DNA from: Lingula anatina
Taxonomy: Eukaryota > Animalia > Brachiopoda
Length of the DNA stretch: 64,000 nucleotides
Reading direction: 5' to 3'
NCBI GenBank assembly: GCA_051362555.1
Contig: CM120644.1
Location: 4,596,954-4,660,953, forward strand
The notes beneath the pieces are model-generated. The model did no database searches and was not told the origin of the DNA. It worked only from the letters and a program-made list of their open reading frames with translations. Shown here piece after piece: positions 20,201 through 59,160 of the stretch. The position numbers and the translations under genes are program-made. Within the stretch, counting starts at the first letter, position 1, and each line of letters opens with the position of its first letter.

Positions 20201-23200
20201 TGCCTTTCACTTATTGTGTTTACAATGTAAGTGCACGGCGCCGGCATCGGCGACGACAGACGCAGGTGATGGTAATATGTACAGACACATCTGTGTCTGT
20301 ACATAAAAAAAATGATACTGCTGAAATAATTCAAATTGAAATACAAATGAATATAATAACAAAATTCCAATGCACAAATTACTCATGCAACCAAATTACA
20401 GGTGTAAAGACCAATCTACCTACAAGCTTCTGCAAGTTCTTTTGATCTTTGGGCAATGGTCCATTTGTCACTGCTCCAATCCTCTTTGGCAGGTATGTCC
20501 AGACTTCTTTTCCTGTCATCAGATATATCACACTGCAGGCCAGAGCCCAGATGTCCATCTTTTCTGAGCAGTTTTGCATATCAGTGCATACCTCTGGGGG
20601 AAGATAGTTCAGTGTAATACCTGAAGTATGGAGATTGTGTTAGTTGAGAATTAGTTTTCATAAAGGGTTTCAAAGTAAAGACAAAGTGTTATAGTCCAAA
20701 TTTTAGCTGTGTTTAAAAAGAGAACAACTCTATAACATGACAACAAAATTAAAATTGAGAATAATTTCAAATTGTTCACCTTTCCCAGGCTTTGAATCTC
20801 TTTTCATTGCACCTCCAAAGTCAATAATCTTGACAATGCCATCATCAGTTATCCCTATATTTGATGCTATAAAGAAAAGGAGAGTCTTATATTGCTACAA
20901 CCGTGCTGATTTTTAGGCAAGCCACAAAAGAAAAAAAAAAAACCTACAGGTGAAACCCAAAAATATTATCAAACAAGAGAATAAGAGAAGGGAGTGACCC
21001 ATGTTAACTAGAGAGTAATCTCTGTTAACTAAAGAGAAATCCATGTTAATTAAGGAGTTATCTTTTAACTGAGGAGTAATTAGTCTCTGCGAACTATGTA
21101 GTAACCTCTGTTAACTAAGAACCCATTCAGAACAGAAGATCTGAGTACTTTCTGATCCATGGTATGCCCTATATGAAAGAAAGGCCAACTATTCTGCTGA
21201 CAGTCACCCCGCCTCAACATGCAGAGATCCAGCAATTAAACCTCAGAGACGTAATTAAATGGTTTAATGGTGTATGTGGAGGCAATTAGACCATCAGCAG
21301 ATTAGTCAGCTCTTCTCTCATGTAGGGTCCACTAATTTTGATCTGTGGCTCAAAAAGTCTTCGGATCTTTTATTCTGAATGGGTTCTAAAGAGGACTTGG
21401 AAAGCTGCTGGTCGATTTTCCGATGAGAAATATTTCTCAGCTTATACAAATGTTCAGAAAATGACCATGCAGCTTGAAGAAAGTTCACTAATCAAAATTG
21501 AAACTGCATACGCTAATACAGAAAAAATTGTGCATTTCTGACCTCAACTTGTCAGTGTAAATAAAGTGAACTGAACACATCGCAAGCAAGCACGTGGATG
21601 CCGCGTTTGAAACTTTGTATCAGACGCTTCATTTTCTTGACAACACAGTGTTTACAATTGGCATGACAGGCAAAACAGCTAAAAAACTCGTCTTTCTGAT
21701 TTTCGTTGATTTTTTGAAGGGCAGTGTTGTTGAGATTTTTCTGGCTATTGGTTGATTTTTGACTTTTTGAGTGGTGCTGGTACATACAACATTAATGAGT
21801 TTTTTCTGTGTGCTGATTTCCCTTTTTTTTGGGGGGGGGGGGTTGGGGGGGGGGGGGTGGTGGGAGCCAAAAAGTCACATTCATATTATATTCATTATAC
21901 TAGAAAAGCACTCCGAGAGCGCAGACCTCCGCCAAGGCAGCAATTTTTTTATCATTATTGATTGTTGATTGATTATTAATTGGTTCTTGATCCGGATCAC
22001 CACCAAAAACTAATCATCTGTTCCTTGGCCCACTTCTGACAGTTCCTGAATATTTCATCAAAATCGGTCCATAATTTTTTGAGTTATACTGATGACAAAC
22101 AAACAGACAAACAGGGGTGAAAACATAACCTCCTTGGCAGAGGTAATAAATAAATAACAACGGCAATAAAATACTTTCACATGCATGACATATTTCCCTC
22201 TTCAATAAATCTGTTGTAAAGTTAATGACTTACACCTTTGCATCAGTATGACAATTCTAAAAAAAAAGCTAGGATGTCTCATCCATGTACTTGAATGTCT
22301 CTCCACACAAACCAAAAGTAAAAATCCAAAATTCGAACATAAGAAAATCATAAAAAACAAGGCAGCAAAGCTGTCAAATGTACAGACAAAAAGCAGGAAA
22401 TAACTATGCACAAAATAGGCTACTGTCAATTCTGATGCAAAAGTACATTATGTTAAACTGCAAATTCAACATCAAATTTTAATTATGCTCAACAGGTAAT
22501 ACCAATGTAAGTGAAATGTGTAACAAGCGTAAGGCTTCAGGCCCATGGGAGTTTAAGTTCACACTTTGAAAATGCCAGAATGAGAAAAATGAAAATTTCA
22601 CATAAAACTGCTTAAATTCAATAATAAATGATAACCCATTTGAGCTGGCTTTCTAATTTGAACTGCATGCCAATCCTCCAAATCATACTTGTAAGTTGAA
22701 AATAATAATAAGTAACATAGTTTTCTTTTCATAATGTTTGTAGTAGCAGTGCAAAAAGATTTTTGTCAATTTTGATGTAACATTACATAATAAATTACAG
22801 AATAATTATCACCAATTTTTGATTATTGACTATAAATAGCATGGACATGTAGAAAATTTGATTACCATTTGGCTTCATGTCCATGGGAGCTTCGAGTCCC
22901 ACAATGAATATGCCAACATGATAAAAATAATTATTTCACTAAAATGTATAACTTCCAGAAAAAGAAGCCAATTAGACTGCTTTTCCAACTCAGGCTGCAT
23001 TTTAGTCCTTTGTTTCTTTTTTGAAAGTTTGACAATCATAAGTAACATGGTTTTCCCATAATGGTCATCATGGCAGCAGCACCCAAAATTGTGTTTTCTT
23101 CTATTTTAATGCAATATTACATAATGCTTAACAGCATAATGACCATCAGTTTTTAATAATAAAAGATCCGTATCGTGGATTTTCAGAAAATGTGATTAGC

Positions 23201-26200
23201 ATGGGTCTTCAAGCTCGTGGAGGTTCTAAGTCACACCTTGAAAATGCCAATATGTGAAAAATTAAATTTTCACAAAAAACTGATTAATAGTCTGCATTGC
23301 CCACTGAAGCTTTATTTAAGTCCCATGTTTCTTCCTGTAAGTTTGAGAACAGTAAGTGACATGGTTTTCCTTAAATGGTCATCATGGGAGCAGTGTCCAA
23401 AATAGGGGTGTCTTCAAATTTTGATGCACTATTACATAATGTTTAACAGGATAATTACCATCAATTTTTAATAATAAAATATCAGTATCATGGATATTCA
23501 GAAAATGTGACTAGCAAAGGTCTTCAGGCCAAAGGAACTTCAAAGTCACACCTTGAAAATGCCAAAATGTTGACAAGACAGCACTGTCCTGAAATGTGTT
23601 TTTTTCCATTTTTAACAATTTTTTAACATATAACAAAATTAACAATTTACTGCCATTTTTATATGATCAACTAAGAAAATTGATGAGATGGGAAAAATAT
23701 CGATAGAACAGTGTTAAATGTCCAATTTCCTCCATTCTGAGTTTCTGAACATAGTCAATGAATGAATCTGACAAACTGCAATGATATGAGTTTATTTCCA
23801 TTTTTGAAACACTATTATACAATACATGATAACAAGTTTACCATCATTTTTACATAATCAACTAACAATGTTGTAAAGATGCAGGAAATGTCAAACAAAC
23901 ACTTTTACGAATCTTATTAGTTAAATAATGAGACTGTTAACATGCCTAAGAATTGAATCTGAGGAAATGTGAATAAACAGCATAACTTATAAAATAATGG
24001 CCTGATTATGCTGATTTTCGAACTTGACCTGCATTTTAGTAAGATTGATTACCACTGTGAGTTTCATGACAACAGGTCTATCGGTTTTCCTTGAAATGTG
24101 TTAACAGTGTTGCACATATGCTGAAAAGTGAAAAAAACAGCATAACTACTAAAATAGTGGCCCGATCATGCCGATTTTCGAACTTGACCTGCGTTTTAGT
24201 AAGATTGATTACCCCTATGAGTTTCATGACAACAGGCCTATCGGTTTTTATTGAAATGTGTTTACGATGTTGCAGATATGCTGAAAAGTGAAAAAAAAGC
24301 ATAACTTCTACAATAATGGCCCGATCATGCTTATTTTCGAACTTGACCTGCATTTTATGAATACTCATCAGCTCTGTAAATATAAAGCCAAAAAGTAAAA
24401 CTGTCTTCCACTTATGGTGTTAATGCTGAAAGTGCACGGCAACAGTGACGGCGACATGATCGACGACGGCGACGACAGGCGCAGGTGATGGCAATATGTA
24501 CATACATATCTGTGTCTGTACATAATAAAATATATGTATCATGGATTTTCAGAAAATGTGACTAGTATGGGTCTTCAAGCCCGTGGAGGTTTTAAGTCAC
24601 ACCTTGAAAATGCCAATATGTGAAAAATTAAATTTTCACAAAAAACTGATTAACTGCCAAAAAAATTTACCAAATAGTCTGCATTGCCCACTGAAGCTTT
24701 ATTTAAGTCCCATGTTTCTTCCTGTAAGTTTGAGAACAGTAAGTGACATGGTTTTCCTTAAATGGTCATCATGGGAGCAGTGTCCAAAATAGGGGTGTCT
24801 TCAAATTTTGATGCAATGTTACATAATGTTTAACAGGATAATTACCATCAATTTTTAATAATAAAATATTAGTATCATGGATATTCAGAAAATGTTCCTA
24901 GCAAAGGTCTTCAGGCCAAAGGAACTTCAAAGTCACACCTTGAAAATGCCAAAATGTAGACAAGACAGCACTGTCCTGAAATGTTTTTTTTCCATTTTTA
25001 ACAATTTTTTAACATATAACAAAATTAACAATTTACTGCCATTTATATATGATCAACTAAGAAAATTGATGAGATGGGAAAAATATCAATAGAACAGTGT
25101 TTAATGTCCAATTTCCTCCATTCTGAGTTTCTGAACATAGTGAATGAATGAAACTGACAAACTGCAATGATATGAGTTTATTTCCATTTTTGAAACACTA
25201 TTATACAATACATGAAAACAAGTTTACCATCATTTTTACATAATCAACTAACAATGTTGTAAAGATGCAGGAAATGTCAAACAAACACTTTTACGAATCT
25301 TATTAGTTAAATAATGAGACTGTTAACATGCCTAAGAATTGAATCTGAGGAAATGTTTAAAAACAGCATAACTTATAAAATAATGGCCCGATTATGCTGA
25401 TTTTCGAACTTGACCTGCATTTTAGTAAGATTAATTACTCCTGTGAGTTTCATGACAACAGGTCTATCGGTTTTCCTTGAAATGTGTTAACAGTGTTGCA
25501 CATATGCTGAAAAGTGCAAAAAACAGCATAACTACTAAAATAGTGGCCCGATCATGCCGATTTTCGAACTTGATCTGCGTTTCAGTAAGATTAATTACTC
25601 CTGTGAGTTTCATGACAACAGGCCTATCGGTTTTCCTTGAAATGTGTTAACAGTGTTGCATATATGCTAAAAAGTGAAAACACAGCATAAATACTACAGT
25701 AATTGCCCAAACATGCTGATTTTCGAACTTGACCTGCGTTTTATGAATATTCATCAGCTCTGTAAATATAAAGCCAAAAAGTAAAACTGTCTTCCACTTA
25801 TCGTGTTAACGATGAAAGTGCACGGCGACGGCGACGGCGACAGGGACGGCGACAGGGACGGCGACGGCGACGACAGACGCAGGTGATGGCAATATGTACA
25901 GACACATCTGTGTCTGTACATAATAATGCTTTAGTGAAAAAACGCCGATTTTCCCATTGATTTGAATGGGGAATAGTGCATTACTAAGGGTGTAATGCAC
26001 TTCAACTTGGCGTAGTTCCCTTATTTGGTCGGTGACCCCCAATTCTTTTGGCAAAATTTAAATGTACTTGGATGCCTCTTTACATAAAAATTAAAAACAA
26101 GGCAGCAAAGCTGTCAAATGTACTGACAAAAAACAGGAAATAACTATGCACAAAATAGGCTACTGTCAATTCTGATGCAAAAGTACATTATATTAAACTG

Positions 26201-29200
26201 CAAATTCAACATCAAATTTTAATTATGCTCAACAGGTAATACCAATGTAAGTAAAATGTGTAACAAGCATAAGGCTTCAGGCCCTTGAGAGTTCAAGTTC
26301 ACACTTTGAAAATGTATAACTTCCAGAAAAAGAAGCCAATTAGCCTGCTTTCCCAACTCAGGCTGCATGCCGATTTTCGAACTTGACCTCCGTTTTAGTA
26401 AGATCAATTACTCCTGAGAGTTTCACGACAACAGGCCTATCGGTTTTCCTTGAAAAGTTGGCAATCATAAGTAACATGGTTTTCCCATAATGGTCATCAT
26501 GGCAGCAGCATCCAAAATTGTGATGCCAAATTACATAATGGTTAACGGCATTATGATCGTCAATTTTTAATAATAAAATATAATAAAATATATGTATCAT
26601 GGATTTTCAGAAAATGTGACTAGCATGGGTCTTCAAGCCCGTGGAACTTCAAAGTCACACCTTGAAAATGCCAATAAGTGAAAAATTAAATTTTTAAAAC
26701 TGTTTAACTGGCAGTAAGAATTACCAAACAGATTGCATTGCCTACTGAAGCTGTATTTTAGTCCCATGTTTCTTTCCTCTAAGTTTGAGAACAGTAAGTG
26801 ACATGGTTTTTCTTAAATGGTCATCATGGGAGCAGTGCCCAAAATAGTTTTTTTTTCAAATTTTGATGCAATATTACATAATGTTGAACAGCATGATGAC
26901 CATCAATTTTAATAATAAAATATTAATATTATGGACATTCAGAAAATGTGACTAGCAAAGGTCTTCAGGCCCATGGAACTTCAAAGTCACAACTTGAAAA
27001 TGCCAAAATGTAAACAAGACAGCACTGTTCTGAAATGTTTTTTTCCCCATTTTTAACAATTTTTAACATAAAACAAAATTAACAGTTTACTGCCATTTTT
27101 ATATGATCAACTAAGAAAATTGATGAGATGGGAAAAATATCAATAGAATAGTGTTAAATGTCCAATTTCTTCCATTCTGAGATTCTGAACATAGTGAATG
27201 ATTCAATCTGACAAACTGCAATGATATGAGTTTATTTCCATTTTTGAAACTTTATTACACAATACACAATATTAAGTTTAACATCATTTTTACAAAATCA
27301 ACTAACAATGTTGTAAAGATGCAGGAAATGTCAAAAAAACACTTTTACATATCTTATTAATTAAATAATGAAACTGTTTACATGCCTAAGAATTGAATCT
27401 AAGGAAATGTGAAAAAAAGCATAACTTCTAAAATAATGGCCCGATTATGCTGATTTTCATACTCAACCCATGTTTTGGTAAGATTGACCACTCCTGTGAG
27501 TACAATGACAATTGGCGTATCTGTTTCTCTTATATTGTGTTGTCGGTGTTGCATATATATGCTGAAAAAAATAAAAAAACAGCATAACTAACATAAAAGT
27601 GGCTCTATCATACTGATTTTCGAACTTGACCTGCGTATTATAAATACTCATCAGTTCTGTAAGTTTCAAACCAAAAGGTAAAACCATTTTCCACTTATCG
27701 TGTTAACGGTGTTGCATATATGCTGAAAAAAGTGGGAAAAAAAGCATAACTTACCTAAAAATGACCCGATCATGCTGATTTTCGAACTTGACCGACGTAT
27801 TATGAATATTCATCAGTTCTGTAACTTTCAAGCCAAAAGGTAAAACGGTTTTTCACTTATCGTGTTTACGGTGTTGCATATATGCTGAAAAAATTGAAAA
27901 AACAGCATAACTTCCCTAAAAATAGCCCGATCATGCTGATTTTCGAACTTGACCGGCATATTATGAATATTCATCAGTTCTGTAACTTTCAAGCCAAAAG
28001 GTAAAACGGTTTTTCACTTATCGTGTTTACAGTTAAAGTGCACGCCAACGGCGACGGCGACGGCGACGACAGACGCAGTTGATGGCAATATGTACAGACA
28101 CATCTGTGTCTGTACATAAAAAAGTGTGGCCTTAACTGAAGGAGAAATCCCTTTTTAACTTGCGTTTTATATCACGGTGCCACCATCCACGATAATGCAA
28201 ATAGTACAGGCCCTCCAGCGCTTGCTTTAGATGGCAAAATATCACCTCTTCCGGGAGACTCACAGGTCTGACCACTCCCCTGGGGTATTTCAGGTGAACC
28301 CAAGTCCCACCTGAAAGTGGAAAATAATTAAAGGGACAAAGTGAAAGATTTTATAAGCCTTTTTCACTTATAAGACCACTTCTTGTCAAACTCATCTTAA
28401 AACTTGTAATACTTTTTGGAAATGATGAAAGAATATGAAAAACCAAACACAGGCACAAAACTTTCATTATCCCAGATTCTTACAAAGTTATGGGGAGTAT
28501 ATGGATAAAGGAATTGTCCAAATAACATAATTTGAGAGTAAACTAGAGGATCAGAGAGGCGATACCGCCTCCGAATATTGTACCACCAGCTGGAGCAAGC
28601 GCATTCGTATAGACCCCCACATACACAAAATAAGGGACACAGCCACCAGTCTTTTGCTTGACAAGCTGTAAAAATGCAATCAACAAGAATTTTCAAAATA
28701 TGCAAAAAAATATATCAAAAGTTCATCAAAAGGTAGGTGAAAGGTCAATTTCACAGTAAGATTGCCAGTATATGACTTCCCATTCAACTTCAAAAGTAAC
28801 TTTGGACCTATCTCTGCCAGTTTGGGAGATAAAAGGGAAGCAAAATTTGCAAAGTTCAGTTCATGGTGAAAAGTAGGTCAACGGTCAATTTCAAGGTCAC
28901 ATTTAGATTGCCAGTGTATGACTTCCTATTCTAGTTCAATAGTAACTATGGACCTATCTCTGCCAGTTTTGGATATGAAAGGGAAGCAAAATTTTCAAAG
29001 TTCAGTAATGGTGAAAAGTAGGTCAAAGGTCAATTTTAAGGTCACATTAAGATTGCCAGTGTATGGCTTCCTATTCAACTTCAATAGTAACTATGGACCT
29101 ATCTCTGCCAGTTTTGGAGATAAAAGGGAAGCAAAATTTGCAAAGTTCAGTTCATGGTGAAAAGTAGGTCAAAGGTCAATTTCAAGGTCACATTTAGATT

Positions 29201-32200
29201 GTCAGTATATGACTTCCTATTCAACTTCAATAGTAACTATGGACCTATCTCTGCCAGTTTTGGATATGAAAGGGAAGCAAAATTTGCAAAATTCAGTTCA
29301 TGGTGAAAAGAAGGTCAAAGGTTAATTTCAAGGTCACATTTAGATTGCCAGTGTATGACTTTCTATTCAAGTTCAATAGTAACTATGGACCTATCTCTGC
29401 CAGTTTTGGAGATAAAAGGGAAGCAAAATTTGGAAAGTTCAGTTCATGGTGAAAAGTAGGTCAAAGGTCAATTTCAAGGTCACATTTAGATTGCCAGTGT
29501 ATGACTTCCTATTCAAGTTCAATAGAAACTATGGACCTATCTCTGCCAGTTTTGGAGATAAAAGGGAAGCAAAATTTGCAAAGTTCAGTTCATGGTGAAA
29601 AGTTAGTCAAAGGTCAATTTCAAGGTCACATTTGGATTGCCAGTATATGACTTCCTATTAAAGGTCAATAGTAACTATGGACCTATCTCTGCCAGTTTTG
29701 GAGATAAAAGGGCAGCAAAATTTGCAAAGTTCAGTTCATGGTGAAAAGTAGGTCAAATGTCAATTTCAAGGTCACATTTGGATTGCCAGTATATGACTTC
29801 CTATTAAAGTTCAATAGTAACTATGGCCCTATCTCTGCCAGTTTTGGAGATAAAAGGGCAGCAAAATTTGCAGAGTTCAGTTCATGGTAAAAAGTAGGTC
29901 AAAGGTCAATTTCAAGGTCGCATTTAGATTGCCAGTATATGACTTCCTATTCAAAATCAATAGTAACTATGGACCTATCTCTGCCAGTTTTGGAGATAAA
30001 AGGGAAACAAAATTTGCAAAGGTTAGTTCATGGTGAAAAGTAGGTCAAAGGTCAATTTCAAGGTCACATTTAGATTGCCAGTATATGACTTCCTATTCAA
30101 GTCCAATAGTAACTATGGACCTATCTCTGCCAGTTTTGGATATGAAAGGGAAGCAAAATATGCAAAGTTTAGTTCATGGTGAAAAGTAGTCAGGCGGCTC
30201 AGTCCAAATTTTATCCAGAATTGTGCAAAAGATGATAACAGCATGAAATTTTCCACGATGAATGACCATTGGGTGTTTGTCAACCCCCTGATCCAAAATA
30301 GATGAACACCCAATGGTTATTCATCGGGGAAAGTTTCATGCTTTTATCATCTATTGCACAATTCTGGAAAAAATTTGGACTGAGCCACCTGACTATACCG
30401 TTCTGCACATTTTGCTTTCACCACCAATATGTAATTTTGATAGCGTAACTCGAAAACCGTTTGGAATACAAAAAAACGGAGACCACCTCCAGTGTTGGGC
30501 TTTACATGCTCTACAAAATGCAAAAAAGAATGGGTCTCTAGCATTAACGGTTCCCGAATTAGAGACAGTTTTCAGTTTCGGCATGTTATGGCCGTTACTC
30601 CAGTGAAAATGCACCGATTGACCCCAAATTCACGGAGATGAAAGATGACCTGAAGGGTAACACTTTCCAATAATATTATTGGTTAAATCTGTGTGGTGTC
30701 TGAATAACAGGGCAAAAAAATTTTTTTTCATAAAAAATATTATTTTTTTGAAAATTTTGGCCCGTTTGACCTTGAAGTAAAGGTCAAAGGTCAAATCCAA
30801 GGGCATATTTGAAATCTACACATATGACTTTTGGAAAGCCGTCTGTAGAAATTTTTCCCATAACCCCTTCCGTAGGGTAGATAATTAGCATTTAATTTTG
30901 CCATTTTTGGACAAGGGTGCATTGCAATGAGTGCCACACCCAGACCCCAATACCGGCAAAGCCCAAATTTTACGTGGAACGAGCTGAGATTATACGTAGG
31001 TGACCTAAATCCAAGAGATGGGTACGGGGGCTCTTACCGTCTAGGAGGAGAAGCGGTAACGGTAGCCGTCCGGCGGAGCTGGCGGAACGATCCGGACGAG
31101 ACCGAAACCACGTGTACCGCCAGCGCTAACGCTGGTGGTACAATTATTTAAGAGGACAAGCGCCACCCCTACAGTTAACAATATCCTGTCAGAAGAAGTA
31201 GATTAACATAATACCTGAGGCGTATTCAAGCAGTAATTCCACCATAGACTCTCTTTTGATCACTCCAAACAGTTTTAGTATATGTTTGTGATGTGCCTGT
31301 AGGAGGATAAGCACCTCATTTATAGAAAACCTTTCTTGATGAATCTACGGCATGTTGAAAATATTAAAAATTAAAATAGTCTGATATTTTATACTGAAAG
31401 CTCACTAATGCCCCTATTTCACACAGACCACGAATCCCACGAATTGCCAGGAATTGACAAATTTCAGGATTCGTGAGATTTTGCAAATTTTCTGGCCTAA
31501 TTTCGACAGGCTCTACGATTCAGTTACAAAACAGGTGCAATAGTGTTATGAATGTCCGTGGGATTCGGATGGAGTCGCACAAATATTGTCATAAATTCAC
31601 TATTATTTTTAAGGAATTGGGAATTTTGAACAGCTCAAAGTTTTTGCCACGAATTCCTGATGGTTCAAGAATTGCAAGAACAGACTACAATTCAACCACA
31701 AATCCTAAAATTTTCAATTTCTGGCGATTCATGGGATTCATGGTCTGTGTGAAATAGGGGCATAAGGATTCAATCATTTTTTTTCTTTTTAAAAATAGCA
31801 TTCTGTCAATATAGAATTGTACTTCATGTATATAAAATTGTAGTTAAAAAAGATTTTTATCCTAAAAACGAAACAAAAAGAATAACATGAGCCAAACATT
31901 CATCTCTAAATATTATTCACAAGCTTTCCATTAACCTCTTTTTGAACAATCAACCTCAATTAATAACATCAACAACTTTGAAAACTGACTTAAATAAAAT
32001 CAAAACATTGTACACCTTTTTGATGACAAAGTCCTGGCGTGTCAAAGAGTCCCAGCAATAGGAGACACGTCCAAATCCACCAGATGAGAGTTGACTGGCA
32101 TAGAAATGACCTCTGCTGCCATCTTTTGACAATTCCTGGTATTTACCATTCTTACAAATAAGATTCTGAAAGTGAAAAAGAACCTTATATCCTTGAAACA

Positions 32201-34883: not shown

Positions 34884-37800
34884 ATGGCTGAGGGAGAAGA
34901 ACATGACCCTGGGGCTTTTGAAGCAATGTTTCAGAGCTTTCTGCATCAAAGTTCATACGAAAAGAAATACTTCAGTTTAAAGAGAAAATGCGAGTACTTG
35001 CAGCAGGTAATTTTAACCCCGTAATTGTAACGGAGGGCCAAGAAGATGAAGGAAACGATACTCGGTGAGGGGGGAGGGGGGGGGGAGAGATTCCCAATTT
35101 GGTTAAAATCTTGAGACAAAGGGAAAGGGGTATAATGTACTGTAATCTACAGGTTCTCCCAATTTTCTTTGCTCATCTCAACTAAAACTCGAAGTAATAT
35201 TTTATTTGCATTACTCATGAATACTGTGATTTAAAATTATGTTTTGCATTTTGGTACTTTTGTAGTATACCCCCCACCCTGTAACTTCCTGAAACTTTCA
35301 TTTTTCAAACATTTTTTTACTTTGTCTTTTTCACCCATGTCAAAGCTGTTGAAATAAAATGTTTTTGTAATTACCTGTGGTCTTTTTATTTGTTTTAATC
35401 ACGTTTAATCCACCCCATTGAAATACAATGTGAAAATTTACAATGTACCTGCAGTCAATAACTTGCTGCGTTTTCGTTGGATAACTCTACCTTATTTTAT
35501 GTGAACATAGGATTGATACATTGTATACTTGGACTTCCTCTGTGAAATTATTATGAGCTACTTGTTCACATAAAATTACCTTAGAGTTAGCCAACGAAAA
35601 CACGGCAAGTTATTGACTGCTGGTGTAAATTGAAGATTCTAACATTGTATTTCAATGGGCTGGATTAAACGTGATTAAAACTAATGAAAAGTCCACAGGT
35701 AATTACAAAAGCATTTTATTTCAACAGCTTTGACATAGATGAACAAGAAAATGTAAAAAACTGTTTGAAAAGTGAAAGTTACAGAAAGTTACAGGGTGGG
35801 GGGGTATACTACAAAAGTACCTGCATTTTCACATAATTCTAATTGCCAACCCAGAGCACCTGCAATAACATAAATCCTGCAAGTCCATGACTGGTTGGAC
35901 AGCCAGTATTCCCATTGATCTCTGTCTTTTAAATTAAATTATATTAACTTCAAGTCTCCTGTTATATTTATCAGCAACCCTGTCATCATATATCAGTCAC
36001 TGTGTATTGTAGCGATTTGGGGGGGAGAAAACACCAAGGCTCGACCGGGACTTGAACCTGGGACTCTCGCAAACCGTGCGACCGGTCTTACCTACTGAGC
36101 TACTGAGCCCGGGACAATCCCGGTCAGCCACTACACTCCTCCCCCCAAATGCCGAAAGACGCAAGTCCAACTCCGTCACCGCTGCCACCATTGTAACGAT
36201 TTGGCAGGAGAAAACACCAAGGCTCGATCGGGACTCGAACCCAGGACTCTCGCGAACCGTGCGACTGCTCTTACCTACTGAGCTACCGAGCCCATGACAA
36301 TCCCGGCCAGCCACTACAGTATTATTATTTCTGGTATAAATGATTAAAATTACTTCATATTTATTTTTTTCATAGTTTAACGAAAAATTGGTAAATCGAA
36401 TTCAGCAAGTGAAGAAGATTCTTAAAAAGACAAAGAAAGAGAGAAGGTAGGTTTGCATATATGTCATAAAAACATTTGGAATTTAAGAAGTAAATACTTC
36501 TTAAATTAAGTTAACAGATCATTCTATAAAGAAAGTCACCTTGACAGAGGCCAATAAATTGACTAAACAGCAGGAAGAGAACTTATCTAAGGGATTAAAA
36601 TCCTCTGTCATGTAATTGAACCTCTCAAAGCATATGCTGCTAAGTTGTATGACTAATATGTAATGGTGCTGTGAAGAGCCGTTTACAGTATTGCCATCGA
36701 GGTTAAATAACTTGTTCAAATTCAATTCTGATTTGTTAGTAAATCGCTGTCTTTATCATAAAATAGAGCCATTATTTATAGATGCTGCCAAGCTTTAGAC
36801 TGATGTTTCTCTTCTTAGATTTATGATGGGAAAGCTTGATGAACATGGAGACAACTTCAGAGATGCCATGGTGCCAGCCATGTGGGAGGTGAGACTGCCT
36901 TGTTTATTTTCAATTCACATGTAAGGTCGCTGCAGGGGCCTTGCAAGTAATCATCAAAGCCATGATTTAAAGGGGAATACAAGTCTCTGGGGACCTAAAT
37001 TCAATAAAATCGGACCCCTCTTCTCTCTAGATCTGCCCATCATGTTTTACCCACTGTAAGTGTAAGACTCAGTTTGGAAGGTAAATAATTATCCAGTCAT
37101 AACGTCATTGCCTGAACTCTCTGAAATTGGCCTATGCATTACAATGTGACCTGTAATGCCCTTGCAGGGGTACAACATGTTTACCTCTGAAGACACACTG
37201 TTACTGCCTATGTGACTGTGTAGGTCACTTACATCAACAGAATAGAAATATCTCGGGAATTGAAGCGTATTATTCCATCATTTATAAGCATACGTTGTGC
37301 CTTTATCGTCCAAACGCCTGACTGTGAGGTAATACTATAAAAAACATACGTTTGCAAATAAATGCCGAAATAAGCCTTACAGTATTTTATTTCAATTTTT
37401 TAATACAGTTAGTCACTTTTAAATAATCGTTTAAAAATAGTCCAAGCGCTACTAGGAAGATATGTTTTACATAATCAGAATGCACAAAAGTCCAGGATAA
37501 TGTGTTTCATATTTTGGTATCGTTAAGTGTTTTATTTGTGAGGTAAACAAGTTGTACCCGTGCAGGTTCAGGCAATGACGTCACGACTGGATTTATAATT
37601 ACCTTCCAAAATTATGCTTACACTTACATTGGTTAAAACGTGATGGGTAGATCTAGAGAGAAGAGGTGGGTCGGAGTTTATTGAATTTAGGTCCCCAGAG
37701 ACTTGTATTCCCCTTTAATCCTTTAAAGGTAAAGGCCTGTGCAGAGGCAGAGAGATCATCAGGGGATTAAGCAGCATGCTTTAAAGTTGGATCAGCCATA

Positions 37801-38602
37801 TATATTCAGCAGGTCATCTGTTCTGAATGCTCTTGTAGTAATGACTTATCTCATTTTAGGAGGACCAGATCCTGGATGCCCTTGCCACCAAAAGGGAGAC
37901 CCCACTGCAGTCTCCAGTAGCAACCCCTGCCATGCTGACACCCTCTGGTGGTGTGAACATTCACCACACTCCCACTATAGCTGCCTACCACCCTTACTAT
38001 GCAGGTAACCATAGAAACCAAGAGACAGGCTGTTTGTTTGTTTGTTTTTCTGCATGTGTTAGGAGATGAATTTAATCTTGTGTTTAGCTGCTGCATCTCT
38101 CTACCACAGCTCACTTGGGTATTTGTTTTGGGGAATTATCAGTAAATATGTCTCCCCTACACAACATTATACTTTTTAGGTACTTACGTATTGTAACTGA
38201 TAATAACTATTGTAAACATTGATTGCCCTAAATTCAATTTTGCTTCGTGCCATGATAAGTTACTTATTTTAATATTTCGTAATGCATATATTTCAGTTAT
38301 ATACTGCTACTTAGAAATGAAAATTAGAGATATTTTTTAAGAATAACTTGAATTCATTATTAGTGATTTATTTTCATTCATAACTATATGTCTTTGGCCA
38401 GGGTTGAGTATGTCTGAAGGAATGCCCCAGGGGAAGGGAAAGAAGGTGAAGAGTGAGAAGGAGAAGGACCCCAATGCTCCTAAGAAACCTCTGAATGCTT
38501 ACATCATGTTCTGTAATGAGCACAGAGCTAAAGTGCAGGAGGCATATCAGAAGGTAGGGGGAGAGAGGGGGGGGGTATTTGTGAGAGAGAAAGAGAGGCC
38601 CA

Positions 38603-38636
<34 letters not shown>

Positions 38637-38649
38637 TGTTTTTGTATTG

Positions 38650-38709
<60 letters not shown>

Positions 38710-40700
38710 GTTTTTGTGTGGATTTATGAGAGAGGCACCCTGAGCTTCAGAGATAACTTGACACTAACCTCTTCACTATAGCCTATGTTCATCGTGTCAA
38801 GTTACCTCTGACCACATTCAATTGCCCGCACTGCCCGCCAATCAAATTTAAAGCCGCCCTCAATGACTCATTGAACGATCTAGCCAATGAACGCAAACAA
38901 GTCAAAGCGCTATTTGTTCAAATCCGGACCAATCAAAGATAAGCCTGAATATCAGGGACTTGCCGTAACCTGTGGGCAGCACGCAAAATACATCATCCCT
39001 CAGTAGATAGTGATGCAGGGCCTCAAACTGCTCTGGTTTCAATTCCGATATATTCATATTTTGCTAAGAATCAAGAGATAACTTAACACATTCTTTTAAG
39101 TAGTCACTCGTAGGAGACGCCATGCTTTCTTTGTGTACGGTTATGCACTCGGAACTACTCGGATGTCTTCGCACTCGACAATAACTTTGTTGTTAGTATG
39201 GAGCTTGCGGAATCAGCCGAGGATTGCCGATTGACGGTTATGCGGACGCAACGAAATACAATTTTCTCATTGGACATAATTCTGGACTTTCAACCAATCA
39301 GCATTTTCACCAAACTTTGGTGAAAATTTTTGAAACATGGATTCGATTGGCTTATATAAACTACGTCAAACTATTTTCGTCAGAGGTAACTTGGCACGAT
39401 GAAGAGGTTAGTGTCAAGTTATCTCTGAAGCTCAGGTTGTGAGAGAGGGGGATTTGCATTTGTGTGTGTGTAAGAGAGAGAGAGGTTTTGATTTTGCACG
39501 TTTTAGAAAGTGGGGGAATTACTTTATTTCTTTGAAAGTATGTTTGTGACACACTAGTCTTGTTGCTTTAACCTTAATATAACTGACGTACAGCTCAGTG
39601 GATCGGCTTGTCTTCTTATTCAGTATGTGTATTAATCCCTTCTTGTGTGACTTTTCCACTCTAGGAGCACGGGAAGGACATTGACCACCACGAGCTGACC
39701 AAGCAGCTGGCTATAATGTGGAATAATAAGTCAACAGAGGAAAAAAAGGTGAGTGGATTACTGTAAAAACTTGAACATTTAGTCACTTTAAAATTAATTA
39801 GTATCACATATTATGTGTGAATGGCCATATACTAGGTGACAAACTTTTCAAAATTATTGAGAGGCCCAAGTATGAAAAAATTTTCTAGGTGAAAAAAGTG
39901 ACGTTGTCTGAGCCTTATCTTCTGACAAAATTTTCAAGACCGACTAAATTAAAAAAGAAATTGCTGTAATTGTTAAAGGATGTCTAAACTTTTGGTCTAG
40001 GCTCACACACTATTTCTATCAGATGGTATGGTTGATTTTGACTGAACAGAATTCAAAATATTTGATTATTTGAACAGTGTAACATTTATTTGTGTATGAG
40101 AGATCTGAAAGTTTTGCATGATTTTTGATGCCTTTGAGTTCTGTTTGTTATTTACAAGCTCTCCCGTGCTGAGGACAAGTAAAGTTTTCTGAACATATTT
40201 GCAACGCTTTGGTCCACCATATGACAAAACATTACCATATTCAAAGATACAAGTGTTTTTTACTTTAAAGGGGTTCATTTAATGGTAAATATGAAATTTC
40301 ACATGAAGGGGTTTTTCACCAAATATAAGAGTATAACAAGATTAACATATTCATATATTTGGTTAACATATACTCATATATTTAACAAAATTTGAGTATG
40401 TTAACCTTGTAATTATTTGAACAGTGTATTTAACAAAATATGAGTATGTTAACCTTGTAATACCGATGATGATTGATATGATTATGTTTCAAATGACAAA
40501 TGCATAACAAAAATGAGTAATGTGTACTAGTATGTATAACTTCACCATTATTGGACTTTCAGGTATACTATGGCAAATACGAAGTGGAAAAAGAAAAATA
40601 TGCCAAACAAATGGAAGAATATACAGGGTCCCACCTGGCAGCCAGCAAGGAGGTCAAACAGGAAGTGGTCATCAAGACAGAGCCGCAGACCACAGACTGA
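34884..40700 (+). CDS. TFPT/INO80F-like N-terminal coiled coil plus C-terminal HMG box (Nhp10-like), 260 aa, 7 exons
   Basis: Exons 34884-35006, 36376-36446, 36819-36888, 37860-38004, 38402-38553, 39665-39748, 40563-40700, all GT-AG and in phase. N-terminal YEKKYFSLKRKCEYLQQFNEKLVNRIQQVKK...ERRFMMGKLDEHGDNFR resembles TFPT. HMG box: KDPNAPKKPLNAYIMFC...LTKQLAIMWNNKSTEEKKVYYGKYEVEKEKY. AATAAA at about 41364. Confidence 0.85.
35253..35821. mobile_element. Foldback MITE with 8-bp TSD (Merlin-like GG termini)
   Basis: GGTACTTTTGTAGTATACCCCC ... GGGGGTATACTACAAAAGTACC. The arms pair over about 270 bp, and TGCATTTT is duplicated at 35245-35252 and 35822-35829. Confidence 0.8.
36008..36318 (-). mobile_element. 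Miniature LTR retrotransposon (TRIM) with tRNA-derived LTRs (Helenus-like)
   Basis: Two about 127-bp TG...CA LTRs (36192-36318 and 36008-36135), each with A-box GGTAGCTCAGTAGG and B-box GGTTCG/AAGTCC. PBS TGGTGGCAGCGGTG (36190-36177), PPT GGGGGGAGGAG (36146-36136), 4-bp TSD GTAT. Confidence 0.88.
36971..37714. mobile_element. Kolobok-like non-autonomous DNA transposon
   Basis: TIR AGGGGAATACAAGTCTCTGGGGACCTAAATTCAATAAA and its inverse, extending imperfectly about 150 bp. TTAA TSD. Confidence 0.8.
38584..38705. repeat. (GA)n microsatellite
   Basis: Read directly. Confidence 0.85.
38736..39439. mobile_element. MITE with 9-bp TSD (MuDR-like)
   Basis: TIR CACCCTGAGCTTCAGAGATAACTTGACACTAACCTCTTCA...TGAAGAGGTTAGTGTCAAGTTATCTCTGAAGCTCAGGTTG. 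TGAGAGAGG is duplicated at 38727-38735 and 39440-39448. Confidence 0.8.
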
Positions 40701-47301: not shown

Positions 47302-50300
47302 TGTAAATGAACAAATGAAAAAATGGTAATTTTTTATATTATAATGTTAAATGTTGATAAACAAACCCCAATGAAGGAACTCGTTCTTTAATAACGAGGA
47401 TCTGTTCAAAATGAATTTATCAACCTAGCTTTTTCCATTGAATAGATTACAGGAAAGCTGGTGATTGTATCGGTACAAAGATGTTGGAAACAGGAAGAAG
47501 CGTGTCAGTCTGTCAATATGATTGCATTCAGCGAGTCTCTATTAGCTGAGTGCACATTAGATAGTTGGATAAATTCATCATGAATGGGTTCTAAAGTACA
47601 CTGAGATAATTTTTTTTAAGTTGCAATAAGAAGAAAAGAACCCCAATGTAAACCTCACCAGTGGTGGTGTGTGGTCAGAACAGAGGTCAGCTTGACACCA
47701 ACTTTATTTACAGCTTCTAGTATCTGGAATAATAATAATTATAATAATAATAATAAGAAGAAGAAGAAGGACAACAACAGCAGCAACAAAACAACATTAG
47801 CAACAATAATAATAACAATAGTAATATTTTCTTAAATTAAATCTGCTTACCCTAAAAGTATCAAATCTGACTGCTTAAAATTCTATTAAAAGCTTTATTT
47901 TAAACCTTTGCAAATTTGCACAACAATATACTACTGGTGCACAGTACTCATTTACCCTTCTTTGTTCAGTATCACATGCCATTAAAAGCTCCCCAAATTA
48001 ATTACATGTCATAGTACCTTCTTAGGTTCTACAGGGTCCACAGCAGCACATTCCTGTGTCACCTCGTCCACCAGGAGATACATGTAGTTGTCCGAGAGCG
48101 CGGGGACCAGGAGAACCTTCATGTCTGCTTGTGTCACTTGGAGAGACTTGGAGTGGTAAGATCTGGCTGACACCAGGGACAGAGTGGCTGGGGACACAGA
48201 GACAAGTGGGATATCAAACACAAATGAGCATGATTTGATGGTAAACATGCCCAAATTGCATGTGCATGTGTAACGTATAGATAAAACTTGTACTGGGCAT
48301 AGTTTCTTTACAAGTCAGATTTGAATGTGGATGATTTGTTGAATTTATGGAAGGACGTACCTAAAACACGGAACAGCGGAACAACGGAACAGACTAAAAT
48401 GCGGAACATTGTTACTGTGGAACACACGACGCAGGAACGGAACAGCATAAAACTTTAAACTTTATTCATTGTAACGTATGCATCTACATGAATAGATGAA
48501 AACGTACAAAGGAATGCAAATATATATAAATATGAATTATGATCAATAGTGATATTGTATGACTCCTTGTATGAAAAATACAAAACATATTTGGCAGAGC
48601 CCAAATGGCTCTACCTACTCAACTGGTTATGGGTGCAGCACAGTCCCTTTTTTGGAAGGCTAACCATAAATACTTGGCAAGAGCATTAATGTGTTCGTTC
48701 TTCTTACCAGTCATTAGTGTTTTAAATTTATCCATTCTGGTAAGGTGCTCAAAGTGACTATGTTGTTTTTTGTATATTGAATAAAGATCATATCGAAGGT
48801 CTGTATAAAGGGGGCATGACACTAGGAAATGGATTTCATCTTCTATTTCACCAGAATGGCACTTTTTGCAAATTCTGTCAGCTTGGGGAATTTTATCATG
48901 TCTACCTGTTTCAATACCTAGGTTGTGTGCACTTATGCGGAATCTGGTTAAAGTGGTGCATTTATCTCTATCTTTAATTGTGTCTAAGTATCTTTCCTTC
49001 ACACATTTGTTCTTGTATTGACAATAAACTTGTAATTTGGACTTGGTGTTAGTTATGTCTCTCTGCCATTCTTGTGTTATTCTGTCCCTGATTCTTTCCC
49101 TAAACTGCTGGATAAAGTTTTTATCATATCTTTGGCCTAGCCACACATCACCAAATCCATTCTCAAAAAGTATTTGTCTCACACCTTCGCACCATGACAT
49201 GTTTTCCTGCTTTATCTCTGTAAGGTTGGATGTGTTTAAAAGTTTGTAATTTTCTATTTCATCTAGGTAGGCCTGTTTCAACAAACTATTATCTTCCGAG
49301 TTTAATATTTTTTGCCAAAATTTTATAAGTTGTGTTTGGATTTTAAAGGACACTGGTAGCCTACCGAGTTCTCCTCTGACAGCTTGGTTTGTACTTTTAG
49401 AATGTACACCTAGGAGTTCTTTACAAAAGCGTAAATGGATTTTTTCTACCGGAGATTTGTCGGTGATTCTAGAGGAGCCCCAGACTTCAACAGCATATGT
49501 AGCCACCGGTATGATCATAGTGTCAAATAATTTTTCTTTAAGTGAGGACGATATACTACTCCAGAGTGGCATATAACTTTTCAGACTAAAGAGCGCTTTC
49601 TGTGCCCTTTCGTATAAGTTCAGTTGAGCAGCTGTGAAATTACCCGATCTTGTAAAGAGAATACCAAAGTACATGTAACTGGGAGCTATTGTTAACTGAC
49701 TGTTATAGAGAAAAAATTTTTCTTTGCACTGCACCTGGTTGTTCTGTACCTTTCCCTTGCTATTGAAGATAATAATTTTTGTTTTTGAAAGATTTATAGA
49801 GAGTCTCCATGTAAAACAGTAAGCTTCAATACGGTTAAGACTGTACTGTAAACCAGAGGCACGAGTTGACAGCAGTACAAGATCGTCCGCATAGAAGAGA
49901 CCTGTGACGGGTTTGTTGTTTATTATGGGAGAATCGCTTTTGACATCATCAATGAGCTTTAACATATCATCCACAAATATATTAAATAAAAAGGGGCTGA
50001 GAGTGTCTCCCTGCTTGACACCTTTCATCGTTGGAAAACAATCAGTTAAGCCACTGGAAGTTTTTACACAAGCTGTAGCCTGATCATACATTGATCGAAT
50101 GTTGGCATAGAACACTCCCCCTACATTGAGTTTCAGTAATTTATAGGGGAGACCTTTCCTCCATACACTATCAAAAGCTTTACTCATATCTACAAAGCAG
50201 GCATATAAACGTTTCCTAGATCTTGTTAACTTTGTGACTATAGATTTCAGGACAAATAGGTTATTGGAGGTGCTATGTCCTTCCATGAAACCAGTTTGGT

Positions 50301-53300
50301 TGGGTTGAGGGACACTCTGTTGTGAGCATATCTTTTTCAGTCTTGAAAGCAGAATGGAATTATATAGTTTTCCTACACAACTTGATATAGAGATACTGCG
50401 GTAATTGTCTACATTACTGGGATCACCAGATTTATGGAGGGGAACAATGAAACTTTTATTCCATATTTTTGGGTATTGTTTACTCAAAAATACTGCATTG
50501 AATAGTTTATGCAGTACCTGTACTATGATTGCCGTACTCGCTTTCAGCATTTCATTGGTGATTCTATCTTCACCCGGAGATTTGCCTGTCCCTAGAGTTT
50601 TGATTTGCTTAAGTATTTCAGCCTGTGTTATTTCATGATCTAAACTGTCAAAATTTGCATTTTCAGCCTCTTTAACTGGCAACTGAGACTCAAGCATTTG
50701 TTTAAAGGTGTCGTCATATTTGCCTAAGTCAGCGCTGCTGCTGAGTTTTTTAAAATGTTCAAAAAATGTTAGCGGATCAACATGTTCTGTAGAATTTGAT
50801 TTGTTTTTACTAGTGTTTAGATCTTGTACAGTTTGCCAAAAAGCCTTTGGATCTTTCCCTTCCATATTTTGAAGTTTTTCGAGGAGGCTCGCCTTATATT
50901 CATAAGAGGCTTTTTTGCAGGTTCTTTTGTATTTATTTAGGGATTTATAAAAAGTCCCCACCACAACTGGGTCATTTGGGTATTTACTTCTAGATTTTGC
51001 TAAAGTTTTTAGTTCTTGTTTCATTTCTAGCAGAGATTTTGTGTACCACACTTTTTTTTCTTACTGACCGTTTCCTTTTCAATTGCCTAGTGCAACAGAG
51101 TGATTTGTCTGCTGCAGATTTCATTATGGCGTTAAATCTAGTTACTAATGTTTCAGGGTTACTGGTTTCATAAAATTTTGAGATCAGTTGTTGGCTTTCT
51201 ATGCTGGAGAGCGCACTTAAAAATTTTTCACCTGAGTCTTTTGACCACCTATATTTTGATGGTATAGGATGTACGTTGCTTGTATGTGAATTTTTCTGGG
51301 TAATATGACAGGGTAAGATGTATTGAAGTAGGCAATGATCTGAGTAAGGGGTCAGGTCCTCTACTTTAAAGAACAAAATACTTCTAGCAAGTTCGGAGCT
51401 ACACACCACATAATCTACTGTGCTGCACCCATTAGGCTGGTAACTAGTGTACCTTCCTACCAGATCTCCTATTTTTGTTCCGTTTAAAATTCTCACATTA
51501 CAAGTTTTGCATAAGTCCAGAAGTTTCTTTCCAAAATCGTTCACCTTGTGAGAGTCCATATTGTTTCTAAAACCTGGTAAATCACAGGAGTAAAACCCAT
51601 TAGCTATGGGTATATGATTAACAGAGTCCTCCTGCACAAAGTCTGGGTGAACATTTGTATAGGCATTAAAATCGCCTTGAACAATCACATGAGAACTGTT
51701 GGCAACTTGAGTTATTTCCTCGTGGAGAGAGTCAAACATGTCTACATTGGTGCGTACACTATAGCTAGAGTTTGCTGGACTGATATATACAGTAAGTAGA
51801 GTGATATCCTTGCACGTATGAAAAAAAGACTTTGTAAGTTTAATACTAAGGATGTTTTCACTTCTACATTTTAGTTTTTCTATACCAGCACTAATGCACT
51901 TTTTAACAAAAACTAACAATAACAATATCGGTCCTCTCTACAATCCAATTCAGGAAATGACGTAACCGCAGAGGTCGCATTGTCCAATGGCATAGCTTCT
52001 TTTTCGTAATGGTAGGTTAGAGAGGACCGATATAAACATCAGAGGTGGAATTTTGATTTACGGTTTGATTGATGCACGGAATTTACAAACGAGCGACGGG
52101 ATGATGTAGCCTGCAGTATTTGCGGTAAGCGTGCCAAGTTTTAGGCCGCTCCGATGCCCGGCAGTATTTTATTTAGATTATTATGTTTAAAATTGTGGCT
52201 TCTTGTTTCAGAAGCTTATTCTATTTTATTGTCTCTATGGAGGTATATGGGGACTTTACGACATTCGGTTTGAAGGCTTTAACCACTTGTTATAGTTTAT
52301 TTTTGCATTGTATTGGATTAATGTGGCAGTGTAAGGTTGTCCTAGGTGGTTTTCAAGTTTATGCACCGGGTTTTAATATCATTTAGCGATTTTACGACAA
52401 CCGTTTACTATCCAATCAAGGTGACAGCCGAGCGTGGTACATTCCAACACCCTATTTGTAGACTTTCCAACGAAGCTGTCTTTTTCATTTTGTCTTTTTT
52501 CTGAATAGATAACATACCCGGCGTCTCATTGACTAGTTTCTATCCTTGTAGTATCCAACTGAATATAAATGTGATCCCGTATGACACAACTTTTTTGTAT
52601 GTGACCTATACTCGTTGACACGCTGAGACATCCTTAGCATTTTGTGAGCTGTATGTCCAGAATGCCATCTCCTTGAATCTGGTTTAATGGGCCTGTATAG
52701 GTGTTGGTTTGGTGTGGAGAAGCGATTGCTATCATTCAAACATTCAATATCATCCTTTCTGAGACCTAACATATGCTTTGTGTGTAGAATTAGTCTAGGA
52801 AGGCCACAGCGATCATTTAGATGAACGACGGAACGTTCATAAAAGACGGAACGTTTAATTGTTGTGACTGCTGGCTTGCGGAACCAACAGTGCGGAACGG
52901 CCTAAGAAAACAAACGCTCCAATAACAGCCAAAGAAAATTGTGACGTCACAGATAACTTAGACTATTAATAAATTATCAATTACAAGTAAACAAAAATCT
53001 GAAAATCTGAGAAATGTCAGCGCTATAGTGCACAGCTCTATTCGGCGGGTGTAAGGCAATAAATAGGTACATAAGCAACAGTCACCACACAAATAACAAT
53101 GCCTCACATCCTTCAGTTTAACGAAATGTAAGTTAAACATTATGTACATGTACTCTAAAGATAAAGTTAAAACTTGCAGTTATCGTGCTTATCAACATAG
53201 ATACCGGTATAACTTTACACCTGTACGATGCGATATTAAGATCTGCCAAAAAAAAAAAAAAAGAGAGAGAGAAAATGTCTGGTGAATACCACCTGCTTTG

Positions 53301-53356: not shown

Positions 53357-53694
53357 AGGATCACGCCACAGTTAGCCACACACAGTATAGGATGCCGATA
53401 TAGGTCACGAGAAATCTAGGCCACTGCGCAGCCGCTTTCGATCATGTTCAATTTGCTCACCAGAGGGCAGTCAACTCATCAAATGAGACAGTAAAAGCGC
53501 GGACTAAAAGCTATTTTATTGCGTCTAATGCTGTCTCCTTTTTTGATCGCATACTTTCACTAAGCCTTCTTAAAATAACTCATTTGTGTGGTAAAAAAAT
53601 CTCAACTTTATCTTCCTACGTTTCGTCTTGGCATTTTAAATCACGTGATTTGGAAAGAGAAAGTAACTGAGAAAAGTTAGAAAGAGGAACAGAC
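53357..53694. promoter_or_regulatory. Probable bidirectional promoter HAGH / TRIM
   Basis: Divergent ATGs are 338 bp apart. CTCF-like TCACCAGAGGGCAG (53457-53470) and E-box TCACGTGA (53641-53648). Confidence 0.5.
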
Positions 53695-57187: not shown

Positions 57188-57699
57188 GTACGTGTATGAC
57201 TGAATTGTTTTGAATGAAATATTTTAAGTAAATCCATTCTACTGAGGTAAAATTTTTGTCACAGTGTAATACCAATGAAATAGGCTTCAGGTCCATGAGG
57301 GTTCAAGTTCACACTGAAAATGCCAAAATAAGAAAAATAAGAATTCACAAAAATTTACATAAATTCAGTTAAAAAATTATAATCCAATAGAGCGGGTTTT
57401 CTAATAGAGCTATATGTCAAATTTCAGAATCAATCTTAAAAGTTGAAAAAACAATAAGTAACACAGTTTTCTTTTCATAACATTTGTGGTGGCAGTATTT
57501 TTTTTTTTTTTTTTTTTTTTGGTAAATTTTGATGCAGTATTATATAATGATTAATGGTATTACAATCAATTTTTAATTATCTACCATAAATATCATGGGC
57601 ATTTAGAAAATTAGATTACCATTTGGCTTGATTCCCATTCTTTCAGCATATTTTATCCACCATTATACAGATAACTTGAAAACCATGTAATGTTTTGCT

Positions 57700-57942
57700 A
57701 GGCTGCGTTCACATGAAAAATCTATTTTCTAAAAATCTATTTGCAATATCTTGTGATCACGGTCTGTGCCCTGAATACCCCTCGGTGTAATTACTGGCAG
57801 CGCCAAGAATTAATTACAGCTTTGAAAGTAACTGGCTCGCATTGCCCGTAATTACGCCGTGGGGTATTCAGGACACAGACCGTGATCACAAGATACCACA
57901 AATAGATTTTTAGAAAATAGATTTTTCATGTGAACACAGCCT
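57700..57942. mobile_element. Palindromic MITE (Harbinger-like)
   Basis: AGGCTGCGTTCACATGAAAAATCTATTTTCTAAAAATCTATTTG ... CAAATAGATTTTTAGAAAATAGATTTTTCATGTGAACACAGCCT. Confidence 0.8.
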
Positions 57943-59160
57943 TAGTCTGATTCATAGGACGAATATATAGATCAAGTTTGAAAATAAGCTTGATCAGTCC
58001 AGTTTCGGTTAAGTTATGCCTTTTTTTTTCGTATATATTTTGTTTTTCCTAAGATTCAATTTTTAGGCATGTTAACAGTGTTATTATTGAACTAATTAGA
58101 TATGTTAAAGTGTTCTATTGACATTCTCTGCATCTTAATAATATTGTTGATTATATGAATATGATGGTAAATCTGTCTTTGTTTGTTGTGTTATAATGTG
58201 TCAATAATGGAAATAACTCATACATGTATCATTGCAGTTTGTCAGATTCAATCCTTCGCTTTGTTCAGAATCTCAGAATGAAGCAATTGGACATTTAAAA
58301 TTGCTATGTTGATATTTTTTTCCATCTCAGCAATTTTTTTGGTCGATCATACAACAATGATAGTAAATTGGTTAGTTTGTATCTTATACAAAAGTTTTGA
58401 AAATGGAAGTAAACTCATTTCATTAATATTTTTTTGTGAAATTTTAATTTTTTCACAAATTGGCATTTTTCAGGTGTGACTTACAACTTCCATGGGCTTG
58501 AAGAACTTTGCTAGTCACATTTTTGAATACCCATGATACTTTTAGTATATTATGAAAAATAGTTGGTGATTATGCTGTTAATTAAGCATTATGTAATATT
58601 GCATTAAAATTGAAGAAGTACTTTTTTGGGAATTGCCGCAATACAGAAGATTAAATGAAAAACAATTTCTTATGATTCTCAAACCTACTAAAAAGATTCA
58701 TGGGACTGAGATGTATCTTGAGTATGATTGCATTTTTTTTCTGTAAGGTATGCAGTTATTTGTGAATTTTTTTTCAAATATTGGCATTTATATTGCGGGA
58801 CTAAAAACTACCACAGGCATTCTGTCAAATGGTATTGACATTTTGTGAATGTCAGTGTTTTGTATAGTACATGATTAAAAATTAATGGTGATTATGCTGT
58901 TAATCATTATGTAATATATTGCATCAAAATTGTCAAAAAACTTACTTTGCCACCACAAACATTTTGCTAGGAAAACTGTTACTTATTATTTTGTGATTCT
59001 TTGGAGTGACAAATTGGAAAACCAGCTAAATTGATAGGTTATCATTATTATTATTAAAATGTATGAATTTTCTGTGAAATTTTCATTTTTCTATTTCTGG
59101 CATTTTCAAAGTATGAACTTGAACATCAAAGAGCTTGAAGCATTGAGTTACTTACACATT

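Follow-up and report, generated by a model that had tools for sequence, protein, structure and literature searches.

The window, a 64-kb stretch of Lingula anatina DNA, holds a host gene on the plus strand (34944-38781), two exons of which match the INO80F profile at positions 1-17 (E 0.022) and 19-40 (E 2.8e-7). The upstream exon ends at 35006, as placed by the loose ends of RNA reads, and in stranded RNA reads (26 in each of the two RNA libraries, X12 and X15) 36447-36818 is spliced out on the plus strand, the gene being spliced onward to 36819-36888 and to about 37860. These libraries gave 56 (X12) and 99 (X15) reads on 35830-36920, mostly on host exons, and the letters of their exons differ from those of the window, the samples carrying other alleles. 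Downstream of the INO80F exons, near 38400-38550, a weak match points to a partial HMG-box exon, which may belong to the gene. The intron that follows the upstream exon encloses, in antisense orientation, the small element that is the subject of this report:

35007..36375, plus strand: host intron, GT...AG, 1369 nt, with the element antisense inside it (RNA reads whose loose ends map to the upstream exon)
36376..36446, plus strand: host exon, INO80F (PF24245), 57 nt from the element (spliced RNA reads; Pfam 30.9 bits, cutoff 25.1)

Read on the host strand, the element contains no GTRAG donor and no AATAAA, and it presents two weak AG contexts.

Anatomy and family of the element

The element occupies 36008-36318 on the minus strand and is listed below in its own 5' to 3' direction, together with its flanking duplications. 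The matches to the family consensus were counted by eye.

36319..36322, no strand: target site duplication on the element's 5' side, GTAT on the plus strand (flank match; single copy in the empty allele)
36192..36318, minus strand: 5' LTR, 127 nt, TG...CA (LTR alignment; 117/127 to the Helenus-2_LAn LTR)
36220..36292, minus strand: tRNA-like module of the 5' LTR (Rfam RF00005, 40.4 bits; ARAGORN; fold)
36274..36285, minus strand: box A-like motif of the 5' LTR, LTR position 34, putative Pol III function
36231..36241, minus strand: box B-like motif of the 5' LTR, LTR position 78, putative Pol III function
36211..36214, minus strand: T4 run of the 5' LTR, predicted weak Pol III terminator
36177..36190, minus strand: primer-binding site, 14 nt (complementary by eye to the tRNA-Leu-AAG 3' end with CCA, Fig. 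S2 of PMC10886601)
36147..36176, minus strand: non-coding spacer, 30 nt
36136..36146, minus strand: polypurine tract, 11 nt, abutting the 3' LTR
36008..36135, minus strand: 3' LTR, 128 nt, TG...CA (LTR alignment; 121/128 to the Helenus-2_LAn LTR)
36037..36109, minus strand: decayed tRNA-like module of the 3' LTR (Rfam 26.5 bits, below the gathering score of 29)
36028..36031, minus strand: T4 run of the 3' LTR, where the genomic RNA is predicted to end
36004..36007, no strand: target site duplication on the element's 3' side, GTAT on the plus strand (flank match)

Global alignment of the LTRs on the minus strand divides the 311 nt into 127 + 56 + 128. The two LTRs, both bounded by TGT...ACA, are 88% identical, with 14 substitutions and one gap (blastn E ~1e-41), and blastn returned no third LTR copy in the 64-kb window. 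The 56-nt internal part is composed of a single nucleotide, the 14-nt primer-binding site (PBS), the 30-nt spacer and the polypurine tract (PPT), whose 11 letters are all purines and which lies flush with the 3' LTR. The LTR-PBS-PPT-LTR layout of 311 bp proposed in an initial annotation, made from the letters of the window, is borne out by this alignment and dissection. A target site duplication (TSD) of 4 bp flanks the element, GTAT on the plus strand and ATAC on the element's own strand; a 4-mer would match by chance at such spacing in 0.5-0.8% of places. With regard to coding capacity, a stop-free frame across the element had no Pfam match, and the total length is below the limit of about 1 kb for a TRIM of the Helenus kind.

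The initial annotation held, in addition, that each LTR folds like a tRNA, which stands for the 5' LTR and fails for the 3' LTR. The 5' module exceeds the Rfam gathering score of 29 by a clear margin, is called by ARAGORN as tRNA-Thr(GGT) at 36219-36293, and takes the form of a cloverleaf in its minimum free energy fold; the 3' module remains below the same gathering score, is left uncalled, and does not fold into a cloverleaf. Box A, box B and the T4 run were found in both LTRs by motif search, the T4 run lying 5 nt after the tRNA module in each of them. The anticodon loop of the 5' module is non-canonical, with C at position 33 and T at position 37, the rule for tRNAs being U33 and a purine at 37. 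Because Helenus copies, the family to which we assign the element below, are miscalled as tRNA genes, as ARAGORN does here, they should be masked in the annotation of the L. anatina genome. A plastid-ycf2 Rfam match on the plus strand (24 bits, gathering score 65.7) was dismissed, since it is the reverse complement of the tRNA. Self-priming by the tRNA-like 3' end of the LTR was also considered and rejected, given that the end of the module (...GAGCCT) pairs with the PBS, by eye, only at TGG and three further bases; PMC10886601 likewise reports not finding self-priming for Helenus.

Helenus-2_LAn is a published L. anatina family (Kojima 2024, Biology 13:119, PMC10886601, Data S1), for which Table S1 of that work gives an LTR of 127 bp, an internal part of 60 bp, a full length of 314 bp and a TSD of 4 bp. 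Against its consensus the two LTRs match at 92-95% of positions, as counted by eye. A single LTR difference from the consensus, at position 43, is common to both LTRs; the others are private to one LTR, and six of these private differences are CpG transitions, again by eye. Element and family are the same in LTR length, in the first 15 nt of the internal part, which include the PBS, in the type of PPT and in the 4-bp TSD, and nearly the same in total size (311 here, 314 in the family), whereas they differ in the length of the internal part (56 nt here, 60 nt in the family) and in the private substitutions found in both LTRs of the present copy. To judge by these sequence likenesses, the element is a copy of Helenus-2_LAn or of a close subfamily, and, the family and its class having been published in 2024, it is hence of an already known kind. 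The name Helenus, given in the initial annotation, proved right down to the level of the family, since LTRs, size and TSD all fit Helenus-2_LAn. The internal part is about 85% like the consensus, with some 51 of 60 columns shared with Helenus-2_LAn and 51 of 59 with Helenus-1_LAn (by eye); being equally like both, it does not fix the exact subfamily, and the element may belong to an unlisted one.

Among the relatives in PMC10886601, Helenus-1_LAn and Helenus-3_LAn have the same PBS, PPT and LTR ends, but their LTRs are 132 nt long and carry another U3 and another anticodon arm. Loose ends with sequence of the Helenus-1_LAn type occur in the sequencing runs that are used below. The Cassandra and Ajax TRIMs (TRIMp3) are likewise non-autonomous LTR elements with a Pol III promoter derived from a small RNA in each LTR; however, their promoter derives from 5S rRNA, and that of Helenus from a tRNA. 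As regards the PBS, which had been described as the complement of a tRNA-Leu 3' end, the 14 nt are indeed complementary, by eye, to the 3' end of the A. mellifera tRNA-Leu-AAG shown in Fig. S2 of PMC10886601, a tRNA of the bee and not of the host itself, and the same figure gives this tRNA-Leu PBS type for Gypsy-57_CaAu and Gypsy-130_CGi. In our literature search on TRIMp3, Kojima 2024 was the only work on the topic, and Helenus is mentioned in passing in a 2026 paper. A search of metagenome contigs with the exact PPT-LTR junction pattern gave 0 matches, which is uninformative.

Insertion polymorphism and age

An empty allele with a single GTAT is present in the DNA contigs of all five same-species runs, which come from four studies. 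In X1, X2, X3 and X6, contigs pass directly from 35999 to 36321 without the element; they have one GTAT, with small indels adjacent to it. In X10 the joint connects 35996 with 36319 and holds a single clean GTAT. Since the empty alleles carry a single GTAT, the insertion and its 4-bp TSD are proven, and the duplication reported in the initial annotation is confirmed, its spelling being that of the plus strand. The anatomy and the TSD are those of an insertion made by an integrase. X1 and X2 also carry a contig identical to 36135-36411, that is, the filled allele, at a depth close to that of the empty contig (61.5 and 64.4, respectively, in X1; 53.6 and 58.2 in X2), as in a heterozygote; these two runs belong to one study, X1 may be the source of the window itself, and contigs show the presence of an allele and not its absence. 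A sixth DNA run, X11, is from another organism, and one 39-nt piece of it matched outside the site.

The element type is a dispersed, multi-copy family with common termini. Contigs of X10 with unrelated flanks stop precisely at the ends of the element, four of them at 36008, six at 36318 and four at 36319, and contigs of other copies span LTR, internal part and LTR with 22-29 differences from the present one (record 10 of X2, record 18 of X3 and record 25 of X6). The LTRs have a summed contig depth many-fold above that of the flanks, which is not a copy number. The initial annotation had named two findings that would speak against it, other copies devoid of this layout and a locus of two conserved tRNA genes; what was found instead are LTR termini and an LTR-internal-LTR layout common to other copies, and a locus that is an insertion polymorphism. 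In PMC10886601 the 4-bp TSD is inferred from flanks, and its main text does not report insertion polymorphism, so that the empty allele adds to the published family a direct proof of insertion and of the TSD. The segregating intronic allele would offer a natural comparison, with and without the insertion, for the effect of a TRIMp3 insertion on host splicing.

The distance between the LTRs (K2P 0.12), which gene conversion between copies could inflate, fits the earlier statement that the insertion is not recent, yet CpG decay accounts for about 6 of the 14 LTR-LTR differences, and the insertion is still segregating. Once polarised by eye with the published consensus, there are about 8 substitutions in 101 non-CpG sites. 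The enrichment of changes at CpG sites is not significant for the LTR pair alone (5/24 columns against 9/103, p 0.14), and it is modest when polarised in the same manner (6/52 against 8/202, p 0.04). Filled and empty haplotypes differ by 4-9% in their flanks, a figure for the substitutions of allelic contigs against the single-copy flanks of the window at 35822-36846, where indels come in addition. Because the LTR distance and the divergence of the flanks are of the same order, the insertion probably took place soon after the haplotypes parted. An allelic divergence of 4-9% is very high under one species label and may reflect old polymorphism or cryptic lineages; a limited literature search on the heterozygosity of the host found nothing usable.

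Transcription, replication and rival readings

It is very probable, in our judgement, that the locus holds an old, decayed and still polymorphic intronic insertion of the non-coding Helenus-2_LAn, or of a close subfamily, whose active ancestor likely owed its transcription to Pol III, acting from the tRNA-like boxes A and B, and its copying and insertion to the enzymes of a Gypsy element. The present copy is probably inert. Both Pol III transcription and a Gypsy helper are inferred for Helenus, here as in PMC10886601, where Pol III transcription is validated for Cassandra only and for no Helenus. No Gypsy coding sequence was found among the long ORFs of the window.

In the ancestral cycle, Pol III would start near the 5' end of the tRNA module in the 5' LTR. 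The majority of these RNAs would terminate at that LTR's T4 run as an 82-nt tRNA-like by-product without PBS, and the fraction reading through would end at the T4 run of the 3' LTR as a 265-nt genomic RNA that could be replicated. The LTR would be divided into a U3 of 26 nt, an R of 82 nt and a U5 of 19 nt. A host tRNA-Leu, following the proposal of PMC10886601, would prime minus-strand DNA at the PBS, the PPT would prime the plus strand, and strand transfer through R would rebuild two LTRs, after which a Gypsy integrase would insert the DNA with a 4-bp duplication. The present copy has since gained its private mutations, many of them at CpG sites.

Given a T4 run in each LTR, synthesis of the genomic RNA by Pol III would imply leaky termination. 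In human cells a T4 run terminates 75% of the transcripts from U6 promoters and a T5 run 95% (PMC5725217), figures that hold for human type 3 promoters and not for the tRNA-type promoter of a brachiopod. By eye, 22 of 25 LTR consensuses in part 7 of Data S1 of PMC10886601 contain at least four consecutive T downstream of box B (ten T4, eleven T5 and one T6); in part 9, the corresponding run reaches T6 or more in about five wasp families and is missing from two. These wasp families do not fit a general need for a leaky terminator. In the main text of PMC10886601 the string "terminat" occurs twice, both times with regard to Cassandra. The predicted terminator within each LTR raises a small and testable question, namely how Pol III could make the full-length RNA of an LTR element.

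The same facts may be read in another way, in which element and family are unchanged and the genomic RNA is made by Pol II, either by read-through from host transcription or from a promoter in U3, the tRNA module acting mainly through its RNA structure, in packaging or in reverse transcription, or giving rise to short Pol III by-products only. In its favour, most Pol III transcripts would end at the T4 run of the 5' LTR without reaching the PBS; the wasp families with T6 or longer argue in the same direction, as do the arrays of Cassandra, which give multi-element transcripts reading through LTRs (PMC7215508). In the ~6% of each of the mRNA-type libraries X12 and X15 that was read, RNA depth on the element is 1-7-fold, mostly antisense and from other copies, and the family reads continue into unrelated flanks, as passengers of host transcripts; nevertheless, such libraries select Pol II transcripts and therefore favour this reading by design, being unsuited to short non-polyadenylated RNA. 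No pile-up of RNA starts or ends was seen on the element in the few reads of X12 and X15. Transcription by Pol II is further disfavoured by the predicted U3, which at 26 nt leaves little room for a Pol II promoter, and by the conservation of boxes A and B, which exceeds that of all other parts among Helenus families (PMC10886601, section 3.5), and we regard it as improbable.

Readings that deny the retrotransposon itself fare worse. Two tandem copies of a tRNA-derived SINE or of a tRNA pseudogene might have been inserted by a LINE, the motifs resembling a PBS and a PPT being due to chance. tRNA heads are typical of SINEs, where one such head would be expected together with an A-rich or repetitive 3' tail and a TSD of variable length, and a LINE with endonuclease and reverse transcriptase (RT) frames is present in the same window. 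However, chance would have to account for TG...CA termini, for 14 nt complementary to tRNA-Leu placed 1 nt after the 5' repeat and for a purine tract flush with the 3' repeat; there is no A-tail, and the proven 4-bp TSD, the empty allele and the termini common to other copies refute this origin, which we consider very unlikely. The idea of two genuine host tRNA-Thr genes, least credible of all, draws on the ARAGORN call and on the 40.4 bits of the 5' module, but the locus is missing from other alleles, the second copy is below the Rfam threshold and the anticodon loop has neither the invariant U33 nor the purine at 37. To our knowledge, Thr anticodons with G34 are not normally used in eukaryotes.

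The tRNA-like module can be compared with those of oysters. The bivalve Helenus-3_CGi group has a tRNA-like module about 80% like the present one (59/74 columns, by eye, Fig. S1A of PMC10886601), including the odd start of the anticodon loop (A, C, then GGT), while it differs in its tRNA-Lys PBS, its 120-nt internal part and its oyster hosts. Compared by eye, the stems of Helenus-3_CGi and of the present module show three double-sided compensatory changes. The likeness of these two sequences hints at a common origin and at selection on the fold, although a similar picture could arise if the two modules came from different tRNA or SINE heads, and PMC10886601 favours multiple origins of Helenus. 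A wider proposal, which we put forward as speculative and on balance doubtful, would be that Helenus replicates by means of a deliberately leaky Pol III terminator, the same T4-T5 run being passed over in the 5' LTR and heeded in the 3' LTR. This would fix the R/U5 border and fill the cell with large amounts of an 82-nt RNA mimicking a tRNA; the cloverleaf would itself be under selection, and brachiopod and bivalve Helenus would represent one old lophotrochozoan lineage, or horizontal transfer, and not separate births.

Neighbouring repeats and genes

Within the same INO80F intron, 35253-35821 is occupied by a nearly palindromic element of 569 bp, whose terminal inverted repeats match perfectly over 23 bp and which is flanked by a TSD of 8 bp. 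It has a very high summed depth in the DNA runs and is absent from the haplotype lacking Helenus in X1, X3 and X6, where a joint connects 35219 to 35822. This element is a non-autonomous DNA transposon, whose ends starting with GG and 8-bp TSD may point to Merlin. About two thirds of the intron consists of these two polymorphic insertions. Further downstream, at 36967-37500, lies another dispersed repeat. Its left end is sharply defined at 36967 by many contigs with unrelated flanks, and some joints skip parts of it.

Elsewhere in the window, a LINE-type element on the minus strand (48619-51937) has an endonuclease frame (PF14529) and an RT frame (PF00078, E 4.6e-34), and it is probably frameshifted, since the two frames overlap. 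An exon of a RING/B-box (TRIM-type) protein is located on the plus strand at 53671-54495. A 3.7-kb satellite at 2590-6279 is built from about 161 copies of a 23-bp unit, with 86% matches. A 1.4-2.2-kb repeat that contains 160-bp tandem units and (ACGGCG)n tracts occurs several times, in either orientation, in the regions 16300-28100 and 57300-61300; it may be a non-autonomous Helitron-like family. Finally, a tandem array of about 10 copies of a 146-bp unit, with 93% matches, extends over 28751-30189.
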